IMG/VR virus record: IMGVR_UViG_3300045740_000123
Coordinates: 21,145-85,144 of that record
DNA: 64,000 nucleotides
From: a virus
Reading direction: 5' to 3' (one strand)
Of the stretch, positions 20,913 through 43,232 are shown piece after piece. Made by a program: the position numbers and the translations under genes. A model generated the notes under the pieces. That model was not told the origin of the DNA, searched no databases, and worked only from the letters and a program-made list of their open reading frames with translations. Each line of letters starts with the position of its first letter. Within the stretch, counting starts at the first letter, position 1.

Positions 20913-21215
20913 ATGACAACCAAACGCCAGTACGACTACACCATTGGTGATCGCGTAGCAGAGCGTCCCAAATCCCATGGTATCTTTGCTGTACGCAATG
21001 AAACCAAAGATCGTATTCAGCAGTACAGGTCCCAGCGCTATGGCACTGTTGTTGGTATTAATCTGAAACCAAACAAGTCAGGTGCTAAGCAGAAGTTCTT
21101 GCTGATCAGGTGGGATCATTTGCAGACTCCCACGGAACATGCACAGATGAGGATCTGTCCTGCTGATCAACTCCAGCGTTTACAATCTGAGGGTTATGGA
21201 TTCGAAGTCGAATGA
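20913..21215 (+). CDS. hypothetical protein
   Basis: MTTKRQYDYTIGDRV...; SH3-barrel-like pattern. Confidence 0.65.
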   Translation: MTTKRQYDYTIGDRVAERPKSHGIFAVRNETKDRIQQYRSQRYGTVVGINLKPNKSGAKQKFLLIRWDHLQTPTEHAQMRICPADQLQRLQSEGYGFEVE

Positions 21216-37872: not shown

Positions 37873-38424
37873 ATGTATACTCCTGGTCCTCAAGTGGTTC
37901 CTGCGCCTGAAGCAGCGCCAATGCAGCCTGTTCCAGAACCTCAGGCAAAGCCAAAAGGCCCTGCCCGTTCAAAGAATGGTGATGTCGGGGCCTTTATCCA
38001 GCAGTGCATCTCCTTGGCTTCTTACCTCAAGGAACTTCAGACACAAGCCCATCTTATTCACCTGAACTACGAGGGGTCGAACTTCCTCGGGGTGCATGCT
38101 TTCCTTGGAGATCAGTACGAGGCTCATCAGACTCAATTTGATACGTTGTCGGAATTCATCAGGTCTATGGATTACCTGATGCCTATGTGTGCCAGGGGTC
38201 TAGCCGATGCTGGTCCTGGCATCCAGCACGTTACCAGCTACAAGGGAAGCGATCAGCTCACCACGTACTACAAAAACCTGGAAGAGCTGGGCATGAAGAC
38301 CAAGAAGCTGGAGCCTATTGCTGCCAAGGTGGGTGCTATTGATATCCAGAACTACATGGCTGAGCTGTGTGGTCAAGCCTTTAAGGCTGCTTGGCAAATC
38401 AAAGCTACACTTAGGACTTCTTAA
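37873..38424 (+). CDS. dps: Dps/ferritin-like protein
   Basis: AHLIHLNYEGSNFLGVHAFLGDQYE...FDTLSEFIR resembles the Dps ferroxidase motif. Confidence 0.8.
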   Translation: MYTPGPQVVPAPEAAPMQPVPEPQAKPKGPARSKNGDVGAFIQQCISLASYLKELQTQAHLIHLNYEGSNFLGVHAFLGDQYEAHQTQFDTLSEFIRSMDYLMPMCARGLADAGPGIQHVTSYKGSDQLTTYYKNLEELGMKTKKLEPIAAKVGAIDIQNYMAELCGQAFKAAWQIKATLRTS

Positions 38425-38869
38425 ATTTTTGCCCTGGAATAACTGGTTGCATTACTGCGTCGTAATGTGACCAACCAAGTTTTAATCGTCGTTCAATAGT
38501 CTGACGTTTAAGGCCTATTTCTAGCGCCCATTCTTTAACTGTTTGGCATTTGCCATCAATGGTTATATAAATACACATTGAACGATTTCTGTTTTGTTCA
38601 ATGCGTGTTGCCCATTTGCAATTATCTGGAGAATAACCTTTGCTTAAATTAATGCGTTCAATAGAGTATTCTTTACCAGGTCGTTCTCCCATGTCCATTA
38701 AAAAGTTTTCAAAACTATTCCATCTATCACAAACTTTAATTCCTTTTGCACCATATCTTTCGTAGGCTTTTGTATTTGGATTATTACATCTTGAGCGCAT
38801 ATTATGCCAAGTAGAATGAGTCAAAGAACGAATACCGTTTGTCGAATGGCCATGTCGTTGAGCGCTCAT
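38411..38869 (-). mobile_element. free-standing HNH-type homing endonuclease inserted antisense in the dps 3-prime end
   Basis: WHNMRSRCNNPN...YGAKGIKVCDRW..FENFLMDMGERP..SIERI...YSPDNCKWAT..EQNRN; displaced dps end at 38900. Confidence 0.85.
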
Positions 38870-38899
38870 TGCCAAGGTTGCGGAAGTAACCAGTCTAAC

Positions 38900-38923
38900 A
38901 AAGCCACGTTGCGCAATGGCTGA
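38900..38923 (+). pseudogene. displaced original last codons of dps
   Basis: AAA GCC ACG TTG CGC AAT GGC TGA = KATLRNG*, versus KATLRTS* at 38401-38424. Confidence 0.7.
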
Positions 38924-39783
38924 TGCCAAACATCTTTCAAAACTTTCTTAACCAAGTAACTTCTGGTTATCGCCAAGCAGATAAACAGTTGGGTGGATGG
39001 TTGCCAGGGGGTGGCACTGCTTCTCCTGTGACGCGTATAGTATTCCCTCCTCAAAGCTTTCCTGCCAGAAGCAAAGAGCTTCAACAAATGACAGGCGTCA
39101 AAGGACGTTTTGTAGATATTGATAAAACCCCGACAATTACGCGACAAATTGCACAAACAGTGGCTCCACTGTGGGGATCGCAGCCCTATGCAAACCCTTT
39201 GATTGGCGAGGTTGGCGCCCCCGGTTATAGGGGAGGAGCAACACCAAGAGAAAGACACTTAGAAATTCATGAGCTTGGTCATTTAAATCCAGCCGATAAA
39301 GGCATCTATAGTTATTTAGGCGTAGCTGGAAGATACTTGCAAGGACTTAGCAACAGCACTGGTAACTTACCTGTTGTTGATCTTTTGGCTGGTAAACTAA
39401 TGAAACATTTTGATGCACAGGAGGAAGACCGTGCAGAACGTTTTGCAGCTCGTTTTGCAACCCAAGGAAATTATCCTGCTCCTCAAATAAACCCTGAAGG
39501 AACCTCTGCCTATGGAGATCGGCTAAGAAAAGAAGGTAGTGAGATGAGCGAAAATGCTGTTAGTAGAATGCTTAATCCTTGGGGAATCCCTGAAAAAATA
39601 ACCGGGCTTGTAAATCAACAACGGGCATCTATTCTACAAAATGAATTATCACGCTCACTTCCTATTTATCGGGAACGTTTTGGAGGGGAAACCGAGCTTT
39701 CTCCAGAAAATTTAAAAGAAACAGAACGTCTTAACAATTTGGCAAAGCAAATAGAAGCTTTAGGAATTCAACCAAGGTACTAA
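38923..39783 (+). CDS. hypothetical protein with HExxH zincin-like motif
   Basis: IHELGH and a downstream EEDRAERFA. Confidence 0.65.
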   Translation: MPNIFQNFLNQVTSGYRQADKQLGGWLPGGGTASPVTRIVFPPQSFPARSKELQQMTGVKGRFVDIDKTPTITRQIAQTVAPLWGSQPYANPLIGEVGAPGYRGGATPRERHLEIHELGHLNPADKGIYSYLGVAGRYLQGLSNSTGNLPVVDLLAGKLMKHFDAQEEDRAERFAARFATQGNYPAPQINPEGTSAYGDRLRKEGSEMSENAVSRMLNPWGIPEKITGLVNQQRASILQNELSRSLPIYRERFGGETELSPENLKETERLNNLAKQIEALGIQPRY

Positions 39784-40037
39784 GTTACTGACCAGTGCTC
39801 AAGCCTGTGGCAATTGCAGCATAACGGGATGCACTTGCTGATCTCTTCTTCTACTCGGCCCCAGCCGTAGCCATGGTTCACCATGTCAGATATGTTGTTA
39901 TCCTTGTCTCCAATGTGGTGAAACTCTAAGACACGGTGATCATCCAACCCACACTTCTTGCACTGCAGAGTCTTCTTGTACTCCAGAAGCTTCTGTCGAT
40001 TCTTGTTGATACGTTCCTTGGATTGACTCCAGGGCAT
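39780..40037 (-). CDS. small HNH endonuclease
   Basis: CKKCG..LEFHH...EEISKCIPLCCNCHRLEH. Confidence 0.85.
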   Translation of the reverse strand: MPWSQSKERINKNRQKLLEYKKTLQCKKCGLDDHRVLEFHHIGDKDNNISDMVNHGYGWGRVEEEISKCIPLCCNCHRLEHWSVT

Positions 40038-40089
40038 TCATAGCTTTATTGGTGTAATTAATATAACGCTTTTATTGGAATTGTTGATA

Positions 40090-40126
40090 TCGGAGATGCA
40101 GGATTCGAACCTGCGACCCTCTGCTC
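40090..40126 (-). pseudogene. 3-prime half of the disrupted original tRNA-Pro
   Basis: minus strand GA-GCAGA-GGGTC-GCAGG-TTCGAAT-CCTGC-ATCTCCG-A; pairs with the half at 40612-40644. Confidence 0.9.
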
Positions 40127-40518
40127 TATTTAGCTTTTTGTTTCTTCACCTCTCTTTGCTTTTTACCCGCCTGGCTTTTTGCTGTTTTGCACAAATCACA
40201 CCGACATCCATATTTGGAATACGACCAAACTGTCCCATGTGTTTGTCGTTTTTCGTTGGTCCAGCCTTTACCATAACTTCCTTCTTCTAAAGTCTTAATG
40301 TGATGACAGGGTTTGCAAAGTAACTGACACTTTTTAAGTTCTGTTTCTAATGTATCCCAATGGGTTGACCACTTGCAGCTAATATCAAAACTTTTAGAAG
40401 TGTGATCTATGTGGTCAATATGCAACAAATCAGAACAGCCGCATTTAATGCAAACACCCCCAAGAAAATCAATCATCTCTTGGCGACGTTTTTTGTAATC
40501 AGAAATTTTTGAAACCAT
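40126..40518 (-). mobile_element. HNH homing endonuclease of the tRNA-Pro replacement cassette
   Basis: LGGVCIKCG..LHIDHID...ELKKCQLLCKPCH..K and C-terminal HGT..Y...CRCDLC; ATG at 40518. Confidence 0.88.
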
Positions 40519-40523
40519 AAAAA

Positions 40524-40594
40524 TCGGGGTGGAAGGTACTGCCCCTTCTCCTCCGCCTCCCAAAGACGGCGTGATACTTTTCTACTACACCCCG
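40524..40594 (-). tRNA. atypical tRNA-Pro(UGG), replacement copy
   Basis: acceptor CGGGGTG/CACCCCG plus A73, anticodon arm CCGTC-TTTGGGA-GGCGG, T stem GAAGG/CCTTC with non-canonical loop GGCAGTA, weak D arm. Confidence 0.8.
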
Positions 40595-40611
40595 AGGGGT
40601 CCGATCAATTT

Positions 40612-40644
40612 AGCAGATGCGCTACCAAACTGCGCTAATCCCCG
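40612..40644 (-). pseudogene. 5-prime half of the disrupted original tRNA-Pro
   Basis: CGGGGAT-TA-GCGC-AGTTTGGTA-GCGC-A-TCTGC-T. Confidence 0.9.
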
Positions 40645-40652
40645 GTGTTAGG

Positions 40653-40761
40653 GCGAGAGTGTCTGCCTACGATGATCTACGATGCAGCCGAGGGGACTCT
40701 TCGTTTAATACGACGTTCCTTGTCGTACCCTTTGCAGCCCCATCGGAAAGAGAGGGGGTAC
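40653..40761 (-). ncRNA. candidate pseudoknotted structured RNA upstream of tRNA-Pro
   Basis: stems GTACCC/GGGTAC, AGAGT/ACTCT, CTGC/GCAG and loop pairing CCGA(T)GGGG/CCCCTCGG. Confidence 0.5.
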
Positions 40762-40768
40762 TTATTTA

Positions 40769-41317
40769 TTATACAGATTCATTGGGTGTTTTCCAGAAAT
40801 AATCATCGCATTCTCCAAGCCGACCCCACTTCTCTTCCCGATAATCAATATCTTTAGTTAAAAAATCAATAGCGTTTTTCAATATTTGGATATTGTCTTT
40901 GGCGTGGCCAAGCATTGTATTGCATCTATGGCATAAAAGCCCTCTAACCTTGCCTGTTTCATGGCAATGATCTACACAAAATGTTTTCTTTGGAGCGGGA
41001 CTGTTTGTTTTGCATATGGCGCAACAACCTTTTTGAATTTCCAGAATTTGTTTGTATCTACCCCTAGGTAAACCATAGGAACGCAAACGATCAAGATCAT
41101 TAGCGTGTTCTAAATTGTTTTGGCGCCATCGATTGTAATTTTCTTGATGGCGCTTTTTGTTTTTTCTTGACCATTCCCGGCTGTACTCGTTTGTACAAAC
41201 ACGGCACCAAGTATTTAAACCATCTTTGTTTTTCTTTGCTTTGTTAAAAGCATCCTTGGATTTAATCTCTAGGCATTTGGTGCATTTTTTCGTTGGGAGT
41301 TTGCCAGAAATAGTCAT
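40769..41317 (-). mobile_element. Endonuclease VII-type homing endonuclease fused to the displaced C-terminus of its target gene
   Basis: CAIC...FCVDHCHETGKVRGLLCHRCNTMLG; ends KWGRLGECDDYFWKTPNESV. Confidence 0.88.
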
Positions 41318-41951
41318 CGCACTCGCCTAGGCGCCCCCATTTTAACGCTTTTTCAGAGTCAAAGTATCGAGTCGATACCTTAAAGTCTGGTGTCTTTAGA
41401 TCGTGGTTGGTGAGCGATGGATCAACCATTCGACAACGATTGTTGGGATAAGCGCCAATTTGACCGTTGTCCAAAGCCACAATGTTGTGGGACTTATGCT
41501 CGTCAGGAAATTCCGCAAAGTAAAAATCCGGTTCGTTCCTATGAGGATGATAATTGTCAACCGTAAATAGGTATGTGCCTTTCATTACACCTGCACTACG
41601 TGTCATAACTTGAAACTCCATATTGAAGATCAAGTTCTTTTCGACAACCGTAAGACCATGATCAAATCCATTCCAGAACTGCAGGTCAGTTAGCTCTAGG
41701 TCAGGAGTGGGTGCTTGAGGTTTGTCCGGATAATCTGGATCCCATGCCAGGAATGCACTGATGGGAAGCTTGTCGTAAAGGGCTCCGTACTCAGTAAGAT
41801 AAGTCTCAAACTGAAGTGCTCTACCAGTTAAAGATTTACAACTTACCCAATAACCAGGCGTATATTCACCATGACCGTCTCTTAGGTCACGTAAGTATTC
41901 ACGCCTTACCCAAACCTTGACGGGCGGGACATTGGCCACAAGAGTTGTCAC
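41262..41951 (-). CDS. conserved phage hypothetical protein (endonuclease target)
   Basis: ANVPPVKVWVRREYL, GALYDKLPISAF, EHKSHN...NGQ..AYPNNR; GTG start. Confidence 0.8.
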   Translation of the reverse strand: MTTLVANVPPVKVWVRREYLRDLRDGHGEYTPGYWVSCKSLTGRALQFETYLTEYGALYDKLPISAFLAWDPDYPDKPQAPTPDLELTDLQFWNGFDHGLTVVEKNLIFNMEFQVMTRSAGVMKGTYLFTVDNYHPHRNEPDFYFAEFPDEHKSHNIVALDNGQIGAYPNNRCRMVDPSLTNHDLKTPDFKVSTRYFDSEKALKWGRLGECDDYFWQTPNEKMHQMPRD

Positions 41952-42077
41952 AAAAAATCCCGGTGTATCATGCCGGGATCATAGCTTCCTTCCACGCTCT
42001 TGTGAGCACCACGTTCGTAACGTGGAGGGGTTTTCGACTATTACCCCTAGAGCGGTATTGCTCCGCCTGTCAGCATA
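41952..42077 (-). ncRNA. candidate multi-hairpin RNA or leader ending in an intrinsic terminator
   Basis: four adjacent hairpins, then ATCCCGG/CCGGGAT and T6 immediately before the GTG start. Confidence 0.5.
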
Positions 42078-42284
42078 TCAGGATTTACTTCTTTGATAAC
42101 GCCTTGCTGCGCGTCCAGCAAGTTTTGCTTTTCTGGTGTTTGGTACAAATTGTTTGCCTTCGCGGCTAGCCTCGCGTTTCTTTTGGTCAGTCTCTTGCCG
42201 TTCTTCTTTAGATAATGAGGCCCAGGCAGACTCAGGTAGATAACGTTTGGTGTATCCCTTTTGAATTGCTTTATCTGCCATCAT
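42078..42284 (-). CDS. small basic protein, partner of the DUF5872-like gene
   Basis: TKRYLPESAWASLSKEER..TDQKKR....GKQFVPNT. Confidence 0.75.
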   Translation of the reverse strand: MMADKAIQKGYTKRYLPESAWASLSKEERQETDQKKREASREGKQFVPNTRKAKLAGRAARRYQRSKS

Positions 42285-42592
42285 TTACTATCCTTGTATT
42301 TCTTTGCAGCTTCTTTAGCTTTACCGCGCTTTTCATACTCATCTTTCGTCATCCATTTCTCCTTGCCCCACTTCTCCAGGGACTTCTGCTTCTCACCTTT
42401 ACCTCCTTTGTATCCACCGCCTGCACTCTTGTATTCCTGTGCCACAAGCTGAGCTTTTCTAGCCGAAATAATTAGTTAGCCTTACGGCTACGACCATTCT
42501 CCTGGTTTACCGCCACGGCCTTCACGCATAACTTTGTTTTTGATGCGCTCACGCAGGTCTGGTTTTGTGTACTTGCTTTTATCTTCAGCCAT
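42281..42592 (-). CDS. DUF5872-like protein interrupted by a candidate 27-nt ribosomal bypass element
   Basis: MAEDKSKYTKPDLRERIK...GGKPGEWS, gap, ARKAQLVAQEYKSAGGGY...; skipping from TCG to TCG restores the WSARKAQ motif; absent from the ORF track because of in-frame stops. Confidence 0.75.
42464..42493 (-). other. putative programmed translational bypass (hop) element
   Basis: TCG TAG CCG TAA GGC TAA CTA ATT ATT TCG: matched codons, stop after take-off, hairpin TAGCC-GTAA-GGCTA. Confidence 0.7.
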
Positions 42593-43232
42593 AACTTCCT
42601 CGCTCTTTAAGATAAGTGACTGCGTTTGTCAATACATCTATATTATCACCAAATAAACCTAAGGCTCTATTGCACTCTTTGCATAATAAACCTCTGAACT
42701 CATTGGTTTGATGATTATGGTCCATGGCTAAAGATTGTTTATCCTTGGGAGGCTCTTGGCAAATTGCGCATAAACCTTCCTGGGACTCAAACACAATGTC
42801 GTATTGCTCTTTTGTTATCCCTCTGCGTTCGTATTTTTTGTGATTATGATGCAATAAATCTTGCCCTTGTTTTTTAACTTTCTGATAATGCTCCTTATTA
42901 TTGTTTACCCATTTATCCCAACTTAACTTATTGCAAGTTTTACATGAAGAATGAAGGTATAATTTACCGTCTTGCTTTCTTCTTCTAAAGCAATCCCAAT
43001 CTAAATAATGAGCACATTTAGAGCATTGTTTTTGACCGTCTGCTCCATACAATAATCTAAATCGACGGTTGATCAAAGATCTACAATCTTTGCATACGCT
43101 GTCTCTTTTTATATTACCAGCAGAGTTATACCCTTTGTTCCCAAAATTTTCATGCGGCTTTCGGGTTCCGCATTCTCGGCAAAGCTTTTGCATTGGTTGG
43201 TTTGTGCTTTTCTTACAATAGCACAAAATCAC
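42585..43232 (-). mobile_element. Endonuclease VII-type homing endonuclease inserted in the DUF5872-like gene
   Basis: two N-terminal CxxC modules, GITKEQY...CAIC...LAMDHNHQTNEFRGLLCKECNRALG; the start may be the internal MQKLC. Confidence 0.88.

Follow-up and report, generated by a model that had tools for sequence, protein, structure and literature searches.

In this study, we examine a 64,000-nt stretch of viral DNA (positions 21,145 to 85,144 of IMG/VR virus record IMGVR_UViG_3300045740_000123; hereafter ‘the window’), taken from a virus record that is complete at 85,144 bp and has terminal repeats. Here, an ordinary proline transfer RNA (tRNA) gene, tRNA-Pro(UGG), is split at its anticodon by a cassette carrying a second, deviant tRNA-Pro(UGG) and an HNH endonuclease gene. 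We consider it probable that the cassette is a selfish HNH nuclease travelling with its own tRNA-Pro, which destroys its target by settling in the anticodon loop of the resident gene and supplies the replacement. This reading is drawn from comparison of the window with related viral contigs, some with an unbroken gene at the site, some with the cassette and some with the deviant tRNA alone.

The resident gene lies on the minus strand at 40644-40090 and breaks off after loop base T32, where 485 bp intervene. Its two halves and the parts of the cassette are as follows.

40613..40644, minus strand: resident 5' half, bases 1-31 (C1 at 40644, C31 at 40613; T32 follows at 40612)
40127..40611, minus strand: inserted cassette, 485 bp, replacing resident bases 33-36 (TTGG, including the anticodon) by comparison with the unbroken alleles of contigs L003-L011
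40595..40611, minus strand: leader of 17 nt from the left junction to the cargo tRNA, conserved in type 1 cassettes (window, L013, L027) and different in type 2
40524..40594, minus strand: cargo tRNA-Pro(UGG), 71 nt, Rfam tRNA match of 37.5 bits
40126..40518, minus strand: HNH endonuclease gene, 130 residues, PHROG 4234, with its TAG stop at 40128-40126
40090..40126, minus strand: resident 3' half, G37 to A73 (G37 at 40126, A38 at 40125, A73 at 40090)

The 5' half comprises the acceptor strand CGGGGAT, a D arm of GCGC/GCGC and the anticodon-stem strand TCTGC, and the 3' half comprises GCAGA, the variable loop GGGTC, a T arm of GCAGG-TTCGAAT-CCTGC and the acceptor strand ATCTCCG, with acceptor and T stems fully paired. 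When long introns are allowed, ARAGORN joins both outer halves as one cloverleaf; in its normal mode it calls neither tRNA-Pro in the window. Within the cassette, the cargo tRNA is followed by TTTTT (5 nt) and then by the HNH ATG at 40518, and the G of the HNH stop codon occupies resident position 37, leaving only 22 nt of insert outside the cargo tRNA and the HNH reading frame. This layout had been proposed in an initial annotation made from the letters alone, and reading the coordinates and pairing on the minus strand bore it out: tRNA-Pro halves with complementary stems lie 485 nt apart, an inner tRNA-Pro(UGG) with C1-G72, A73, the T loop GGCAGTA and a D loop lacking GG occupies 40594-40524, the HNH ATG stands 5 nt past it, and the HNH stop supplies the G of the remaining loop. 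A 7-nt repeat, GCTAAAT, found at both junctions in the window was considered as a target duplication and set aside as chance, as L013 and the type 2 cassettes do not keep it and the empty site lacks it.

Related loci are given here as numbered contigs; those with the cassette came from searches that used the nuclease protein and short stretches of the cargo tRNA as queries. The resident 31-nt 5' half has exact matches in nine viral contigs, and the gene is unbroken in all nine, its anticodon arm reading TCTGC-TTTGGGA-GCAGA. Because the 5' half is identical in these alleles, the four bases TTGG (33-36) are truly missing from the window, as the initial annotation had supposed of the anticodon, and the halves are no chance match. 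The unbroken gene of L010 (68.2 bits on the Rfam tRNA model) has both flanks in common with the window, namely an RNA motif upstream and, downstream, sequence that includes an 85-residue HNH gene. Searching elsewhere for the tRNA and HNH pair yielded 11 further contigs, from many metagenomes, with the identical arrangement and junction (T32, cassette, G37), giving nine unbroken alleles against 12 cassette-bearing contigs at this locus. The comparison supports an insertion over an ancestral layout, and an insertion is preferred to an intron in view of the empty-site alleles and the loss of the anticodon. Contigs from three other freshwater or drinking-water studies also cover parts of the cassette with 0-3 differences; joints that skip ~490-500 nt were short-sided, probably derive from the tRNA-Pro genes of other organisms and were not used as empty alleles. 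Other split tRNAs were sought by running ARAGORN with introns of up to 1200 nt on all loci, which apart from tRNA-Pro merely joined neighbouring tRNAs; L045 was inspected and holds no split gene.

The cassettes fall into three types: type 1 (window, L013 and L027) encodes a 130-residue HNH protein, type 2 (nine contigs) a 120-residue protein that is 69% identical, and type 3 (L028 and L036, without the 5' half) a 128-residue protein. They reside in at least four outer tRNA-Pro alleles, with acceptors beginning CGGGGAT, CGGGATA (L015) and CGAGATG (L027) and, in L013, another D arm, and they also occur in unrelated flanks. For example, the cassettes of the window and L027 are 99.4% identical, against 88% for the upstream sequence and 88-90% for the outer halves, and those of L014 and L015 are 94.8% identical between flanks that are essentially unrelated (59% and 76%). 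Overall, cassette identities of 94-99% stand against flank identities of 59-88%. Moreover, the broken L014 and the unbroken L003 have matching downstream flanks and come from one metagenome. These patterns support the view that the cassette has moved, or been moved, between tRNA-Pro alleles and phage backgrounds. The acceptor, D and T stems of the outer halves are fully paired in nearly all cassette copies, with 1-2 mismatches in the outer anticodon stem of most type 2 copies and of L027; such intact halves would fit frequent fresh homing into working genes.

The cargo tRNA of the window has the acceptor stem CGGGGTG/CACCCCG, the anticodon loop TTTGGGA, the T loop GGCAGTA, the D loop AAAAGTA with a single G, and a 4-nt variable region. 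On the Rfam tRNA model (cut-off 29), it reaches 37.5 bits in a permissive 5-kb search, against 68.2 for the unbroken L010 gene, and it is missed both by ARAGORN, in the window and at every related locus, and by a whole-window Rfam run with standard filters, much as had been anticipated from the letters. Among 12 distinct variants, three acceptor and three anticodon-stem pairs show compensatory changes, and the observed covariation (15 cells, 94.8% paired) was reached by none of 500 shuffles, with slid controls giving at most one pair. Invariant in all 12 are the loop TTTGGGA (with U33, UGG and G37), C1-G72 and A73; equally constant are the D arm, including an A12.C23 mismatch, and the T stem, except for one G-to-T change in L040. 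C1-G72, A73 and the UGG loop are the bacterial proline identity marks, recognized by prolyl-tRNA synthetase (ProRS). Furthermore, the cargo tRNAs of type 2 cassettes are identical at 71 of 71 positions while their HNH synonymous sites differ by 0.2-0.35 (synonymous divergence, dS). This constancy and covariation support strong selection on the cargo tRNA as a cloverleaf with proline identity marks, and argue for a working tRNA-Pro. CCA is the top proline codon of the window (36%).

The universal elbow pattern is absent from the cargo tRNA: the D loop has no G18-G19 and the T loop, GGCAGTA or GGCGGTA, lacks the T54/psi55/A58 pattern and matches the standard only at C56. The T loop is the same in loci found through the D arm alone and is therefore no artefact of the search pattern. 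With a single-G D loop and a non-standard T loop, the usual elbow must be built differently. The cargo tRNA occurs without an adjoining nuclease in ~19 contigs, including the 134-kb L058 and the 279-kb L045, and its presence in these very large contigs indicates that it is not confined to the phage group of the window. In L045 (9080-10140, minus strand) and L058, a variant with the variable region AATA lies among several tRNA-like genes with unusual bodies. No match to the cargo tRNA was found in cultured phages, and none to its pattern in 185,579 cellular genomes.

The related contigs further support full replacement of the ordinary gene by the cargo tRNA in many contigs. Three flank contexts hold stages of a series that runs from the unbroken gene through the full cassette and a form with cargo tRNA, HNH gene and 3' half to the cargo tRNA alone in the slot of the old gene.

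Context 1 (RNA motif upstream, TATCAACAAT... downstream): unbroken in L010; full cassette in the window, L013 and L027; cargo tRNA alone in L018 and L047
Context 2 (...GGGGGTCACT upstream and/or TCACCTGG... downstream): unbroken in L003; full cassette in L014, L034 and L037; cargo tRNA alone in L042, L048, L049 and L059
Context 3 (after tRNA-Leu(UAA), TTAATCAG... downstream): full cassette in L015; cargo tRNA, HNH gene and 3' half in L028 and L036; cargo tRNA alone in L016, L024, L031 and L033

At their ends, the cargo tRNA and the resident gene have CGG... and ...CCCGA in common, which makes short homology available for clean deletions. A different layout is found in nine contigs (L019, L021, L022, L026, L032, L035, L040, L050 and L055), where tRNA-Leu(UAA) and tRNA-Gly(UCC) are followed by a second HNH gene and then the cargo tRNA. 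The second HNH protein is 35-38% identical to the cassette HNH protein, and its gene ends at TAGTAG inside the D arm of the cargo tRNA; the arrangement appears to be a further tRNA-plus-HNH module that entered at the 5' boundary of the cargo tRNA.

The cassette nuclease matches PHROG 4234, ‘HNH endonuclease’, over nearly its full length (residues 8-128, E 4.4e-32), and its Pfam HNH match of 11.6 bits falls below the cut-off of 21.4. Every family match was to HNH, and none to the GIY-YIG catalytic domain; a CxxC...DH...CxxCH pattern is visible in all HNH copies. The reading frame is open in all ten copies examined, with ratios of nonsynonymous to synonymous substitution (dN/dS) of 0.04-0.23, which supports purifying selection on what we read as a working protein. 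Relatives of the nuclease in cultured phages lie within tRNA arrays in each of the five genomes opened (Marzo, Catera, TunaTartare, Myrna and BUCTxx99). The closest of them, 57% identical, is found in Stenotrophomonas phage Marzo immediately upstream of a tRNA-Pro(UGG), with its reading frame overlapping the first 24 nt of that tRNA, and it is absent from sister phages such as Moby.

In Myrna, the annotated upstream ‘tRNA-Arg’ was considered as a second deviant cargo tRNA and dropped, since Rfam is empty there at E up to 1. In Mycobacterium phage Catera (L061, 1128-1662), an apparent 5' tRNA part (acceptor, D arm and the start of the anticodon stem) stands directly before the HNH relative, whose end overlaps a tRNA recorded as a pseudogene (‘tRNA-OTHER’) and called by ARAGORN as tRNA-Thr(GGU); here, cluster C mycobacteriophages may have a similarly split tRNA gene.

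The pairing of Marzo and Moby points to where the nuclease may act. The anticodon arm reads CCTGC-TTTGGGA-GCAGG in Moby and CTGCT-TTTGGGA-AGCAG in Marzo, and this one-base shift of the stem is the same as that from the cyanophage resident gene (TCTGC-TTTGGGA-GCAGA) to most cargo tRNAs (CTGCT-TTTGGGA-AGCAG). Nuclease-free alleles (the cyanophage contigs and Moby) thereby have CTGCTTTGGGAGCAG in common, and nuclease-linked ones (Marzo and most cargo tRNAs) CTGCTTTTGGGAAGCAG. As the split between CTGCTTTGGGAGCAG and CTGCTTTTGGGAAGCAG tracks the nuclease in two very distant phage groups, the anticodon arm may be the determinant of immunity; we infer that nucleases of this HNH family act on tRNA-Pro(UGG) genes by cutting the anticodon arm, which is also the position of the cassette, and that an altered arm makes a gene immune. 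Besides the anticodon stem, the tRNA-Pro genes of Marzo (L060) and Moby (L065) differ in the D and T loops and, by a compensatory change, in acceptor pair 4:69, and Marzo lacks 86 nt that Moby has between tRNA-Pro and tRNA-Leu. The differences around the nuclease form a patch that resembles co-conversion.

The T and D loops of the Marzo-linked tRNA-Pro are ordinary, and the loops of the tRNAs beside the HNH relatives in TunaTartare and BUCTxx99 are ordinary too, so that odd loops are not general to the cargo of this nuclease family. The initial annotation had described a destroy-and-replace element whose cargo is immune because it has abandoned the conserved tRNA sequence. Comparison backs insertion, mobility and replacement; immunity through the abandoned T and D loops found no such backing and, given the ordinary loops of Marzo, may be wrong.

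In the mechanism that we propose, the tRNA cluster would be transcribed on the minus strand, and processing of the 3' end of the cargo tRNA would release an HNH message with a 5-nt leader. The nuclease would then cut the unbroken tRNA-Pro gene of a related, co-infecting phage in or near the anticodon arm, and presumably spare the cargo tRNA, which differs in sequence around that arm. Repair would use the cassette-bearing genome as template, with homology provided by the tRNA halves and the flanks, and would copy the cassette in, remove bases 33-36 and leave a site that can no longer be cut. Finally, the cargo tRNA would assume the tRNA-Pro(UGG) function, and later deletions between the short matching acceptor ends would remove first the 5' half and then the HNH gene and 3' half, leaving the cargo tRNA in the old place. 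This fourth step is backed by the comparison; the first three we infer.

Several points weigh against this explanation. Type 1 cassettes occur in only two contigs besides the window, the outer halves are less diverged than the HNH synonymous sites, and their intact state also fits a remaining function of the halves. Part of the identity pattern could also arise if the cassette was inherited vertically and its flanks underwent mosaic recombination. Furthermore, the comparison of Marzo and Moby leaves the odd T and D loops of the cargo tRNA unexplained, and tRNA-Pro is an accessory gene in phages, so that rescue is not strictly required for the cassette to persist.

Of the alternatives, the one that survives best is still unlikely in our judgement: the nuclease would hitch-hike, and the cargo tRNA would spread since its deviant body escapes a host tRNA-cleaving defence or nucleases that read the T arm of tRNA genes. 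The T-arm motif read by SegB, GGTTCRANTCC (PMC2330249; PMC13096335), is indeed absent from the cargo tRNA. Cyanophage tRNA clusters hold GIY-YIG and other HNH genes, such as that for the 85-residue HNH protein; the cargo tRNA alone is commoner than the cassette; and the ordinary loops of the Marzo-linked tRNA-Pro imply that evading this HNH family does not require odd loops. Against it, we know of no tRNA-Pro-cleaving defence, and the precise split at the anticodon with a nuclease inside is left unexplained. Such spread is compatible with the destroy-and-replace explanation, and both can be true together.

It is improbable, more so than hitch-hiking, that the cassette reflects a one-off illegitimate insertion inherited vertically, with an HNH protein that does not target tRNA-Pro and flanks produced by mosaic recombination around an old scar. 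The single junction in all copies (T32, cassette, G37) does suggest one founding event, and phage tRNA regions are mosaic. However, the outer halves around the 99.4% identical cassettes of the window and L027 differ from each other by 10-12% and in their acceptor stems, the halves look fresh, not decayed, and the HNH gene is under purifying selection. In addition, the nearest cultured relative of the HNH protein is again tied to tRNA-Pro(UGG), being present in Marzo and absent from its sisters.

Marginally less probable again is that the cargo tRNA does not decode, and that its tRNA shape instead serves as a signal in the processing or expression of the nuclease message or in some other non-translational role. 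The altered elbow, without T54/psi55/A58 and the D-loop GG, would suit such a role, as would the rejection of the cargo tRNA by ARAGORN and the position of the HNH ATG 5 nt behind it with no ribosome-binding site. Yet ~19 contigs keep the cargo tRNA unchanged without an adjoining nuclease, the loop with U33, UGG and G37 is invariant along with C1-G72 and A73, and the cargo tRNA lies exactly in the place of the ordinary gene.

The remaining alternative, a self-splicing group I-like intron of 485 nt with a homing endonuclease, whose outer halves are spliced into a working tRNA, recalls known introns in its anticodon-loop position and internal endonuclease gene, and the fold of the full 555 nt is somewhat better than that of shuffled sequences (z = -3.0), but we reject it as scarcely credible: TTGG, including the anticodon, is absent from the DNA by comparison with nine unbroken alleles, no choice of splice sites yields a 7-nt loop with U33 and UGG or otherwise restores the tRNA, no group I or other intron family and no ribozyme core matches at E up to 10 in 38000-43000, just 22 nt are non-coding outside the cargo tRNA and HNH frame, and the outer anticodon stem has 1-2 mismatches in most type 2 copies and L027.

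The wider setting of the cassette is that of a freshwater phage tRNA cluster with other nuclease genes. Matches of the window to the DNA of cultured phages are few and mostly to Synechococcus phages, and most sequencing runs that contain the stretch come from freshwater, lake, sediment and drinking-water metagenomes, with no RNA runs among those listed. A promoter and terminator scan returned two minus-strand promoter-like sites (40795-40768 and 40087-60), no more than expected by chance. Two features flank the tRNA-Pro slot.

40651..40733, minus strand: non-coding RNA candidate of ~80 nt, conserved, just upstream of the tRNA-Pro slot
39780..40037, minus strand: second HNH gene, 85 residues, matching PHROG 2255 and 3106 HNH (E 1.7e-20)

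The RNA candidate has 80-87% identity to unannotated stretches between tRNA genes of the Synechococcus phages S-CREM1 and DSL-LC03, also stands upstream in L010, L013, L014 and L018, and has related copies in many metagenome contigs; at E up to 10, Rfam returned nothing for it. In L013 and L018, it carries an insert of ~45 nt mid-way. A weak tRNA-like gene (31.3 bits) at 1260-1329 of L010 also occurs just upstream of the RNA motif in L013 and L014 and is absent from the window; its counterpart in S-CREM1 is called by ARAGORN as tRNA-His with anticodon AUG. On the other side, the 85-residue HNH gene lies ~50 nt downstream of the slot, and its product is ~28% identical to the cassette HNH protein. 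It or a homologue stands beside unbroken (L010), broken (window, L013) and cargo-only (L039) alleles, and may be an older tRNA-linked nuclease module later invaded by the cassette. Further upstream, an endonuclease VII gene (40769-41317, minus strand; Pfam PF02945, E 2.7e-25) follows a PHROG 3704 gene (41262-41951, minus strand), and its end is a near-copy of the last 18 residues of that upstream gene (KWGRLGECDDYFW.TPNE). Because L010 has the PHROG 3704 gene and its tail with no endonuclease, endonuclease VII is read as a second insertion of a nuclease gene, here one that duplicates the end of its neighbour.

Among known systems, the closest in setting are the free-standing nucleases of phage tRNA clusters. 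SegB of T4 and T6 cuts the tRNA genes of SegB-free phages, reads the T arm and drags neighbouring tRNA genes along, and the T5 tRNA cluster holds HNH enzymes (PMC2330249; PMC13096335). Like SegB, the cassette nuclease is encoded by a free-standing gene, with no intron, in a phage tRNA cluster, and its presence varies among sister phages; by analogy, it may likewise cut the tRNA DNA of related phages and gain preferential inheritance together with neighbouring tRNAs. SegB differs in being a GIY-YIG enzyme located between tRNA genes and reading the T arm, whereas the cassette nuclease is an HNH enzyme inside a tRNA gene. Moreover, SegB leaves no halved gene and has no deviant isoacceptor, whereas the cassette removes the anticodon and brings a complete deviant isoacceptor. 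The Marzo element is similar in its nuclease, linked to a tRNA-Pro(UGG) with the same shifted stem as most cargo tRNAs (CTGCT/AGCAG) and missing in Moby, and different in that its one tRNA-Pro, with T and D loops of the ordinary kind, stands downstream of the nuclease, with no dead halves.

Cyanobacterial group I introns include those of tRNA-Leu(UAA) and of tRNA-fMet, the latter with an endonuclease in the anticodon region. Such mobile introns in tRNA anticodon loops (PMC3984707) resemble the cassette as mobile elements that bring an endonuclease gene into the same loop. RNA splicing undoes their damage, whereas in the cassette no ribozyme was found, the anticodon is deleted and a second complete tRNA would supply the function. 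A further likeness is to homing endonucleases with a recoded or duplicated gene end, such as the endonuclease VII of the window, in which the target is displaced and a still-working, non-matching version is carried along. Those cases involve the ends of protein genes; here, a whole RNA gene is concerned, and the replacement departs from the universal tRNA loop pattern. In the literature searched, we found no account of a tRNA gene broken by a nuclease cassette that brings its own substitute tRNA. The element appears to belong with the free-standing homing endonucleases of tRNA clusters, and its destroy-and-replace reading is well supported by comparison.

Homing endonucleases are thought to persist in useful or essential genes through self-splicing introns or inteins, or by using intergenic sites. 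The cassette would represent a third route, for an RNA gene, in which the target is destroyed and an uncuttable replacement supplied, a design that resembles a cut-and-rescue gene drive. The related contigs appear to keep its whole life cycle, from empty site through invasion, decay of the debris and loss of the nuclease to the replaced gene. To what is known of tRNA-cluster nucleases, the window adds this full series of stages, a strongly conserved non-standard tRNA body and, through Marzo and Moby, a pointer to the anticodon arm. Tentatively, and with somewhat less than even confidence, we suggest that nuclease-plus-tRNA modules form a general selfish class that wrecks ordinary tRNA genes and installs nuclease-proof isoacceptors, in a race that drives phage tRNAs off the universal pattern; the cargo tRNA would then work without a canonical elbow and would now be commoner than the ordinary allele in this lake-phage group. 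Such modules could explain phage-cluster tRNAs that standard finders miss. Moreover, as a natural and strongly conserved tRNA-Pro with a non-standard elbow, the cargo tRNA may serve as a probe of what ribonuclease P, the CCA-adding enzyme, ProRS, elongation factor Tu and the ribosome require of their substrate.

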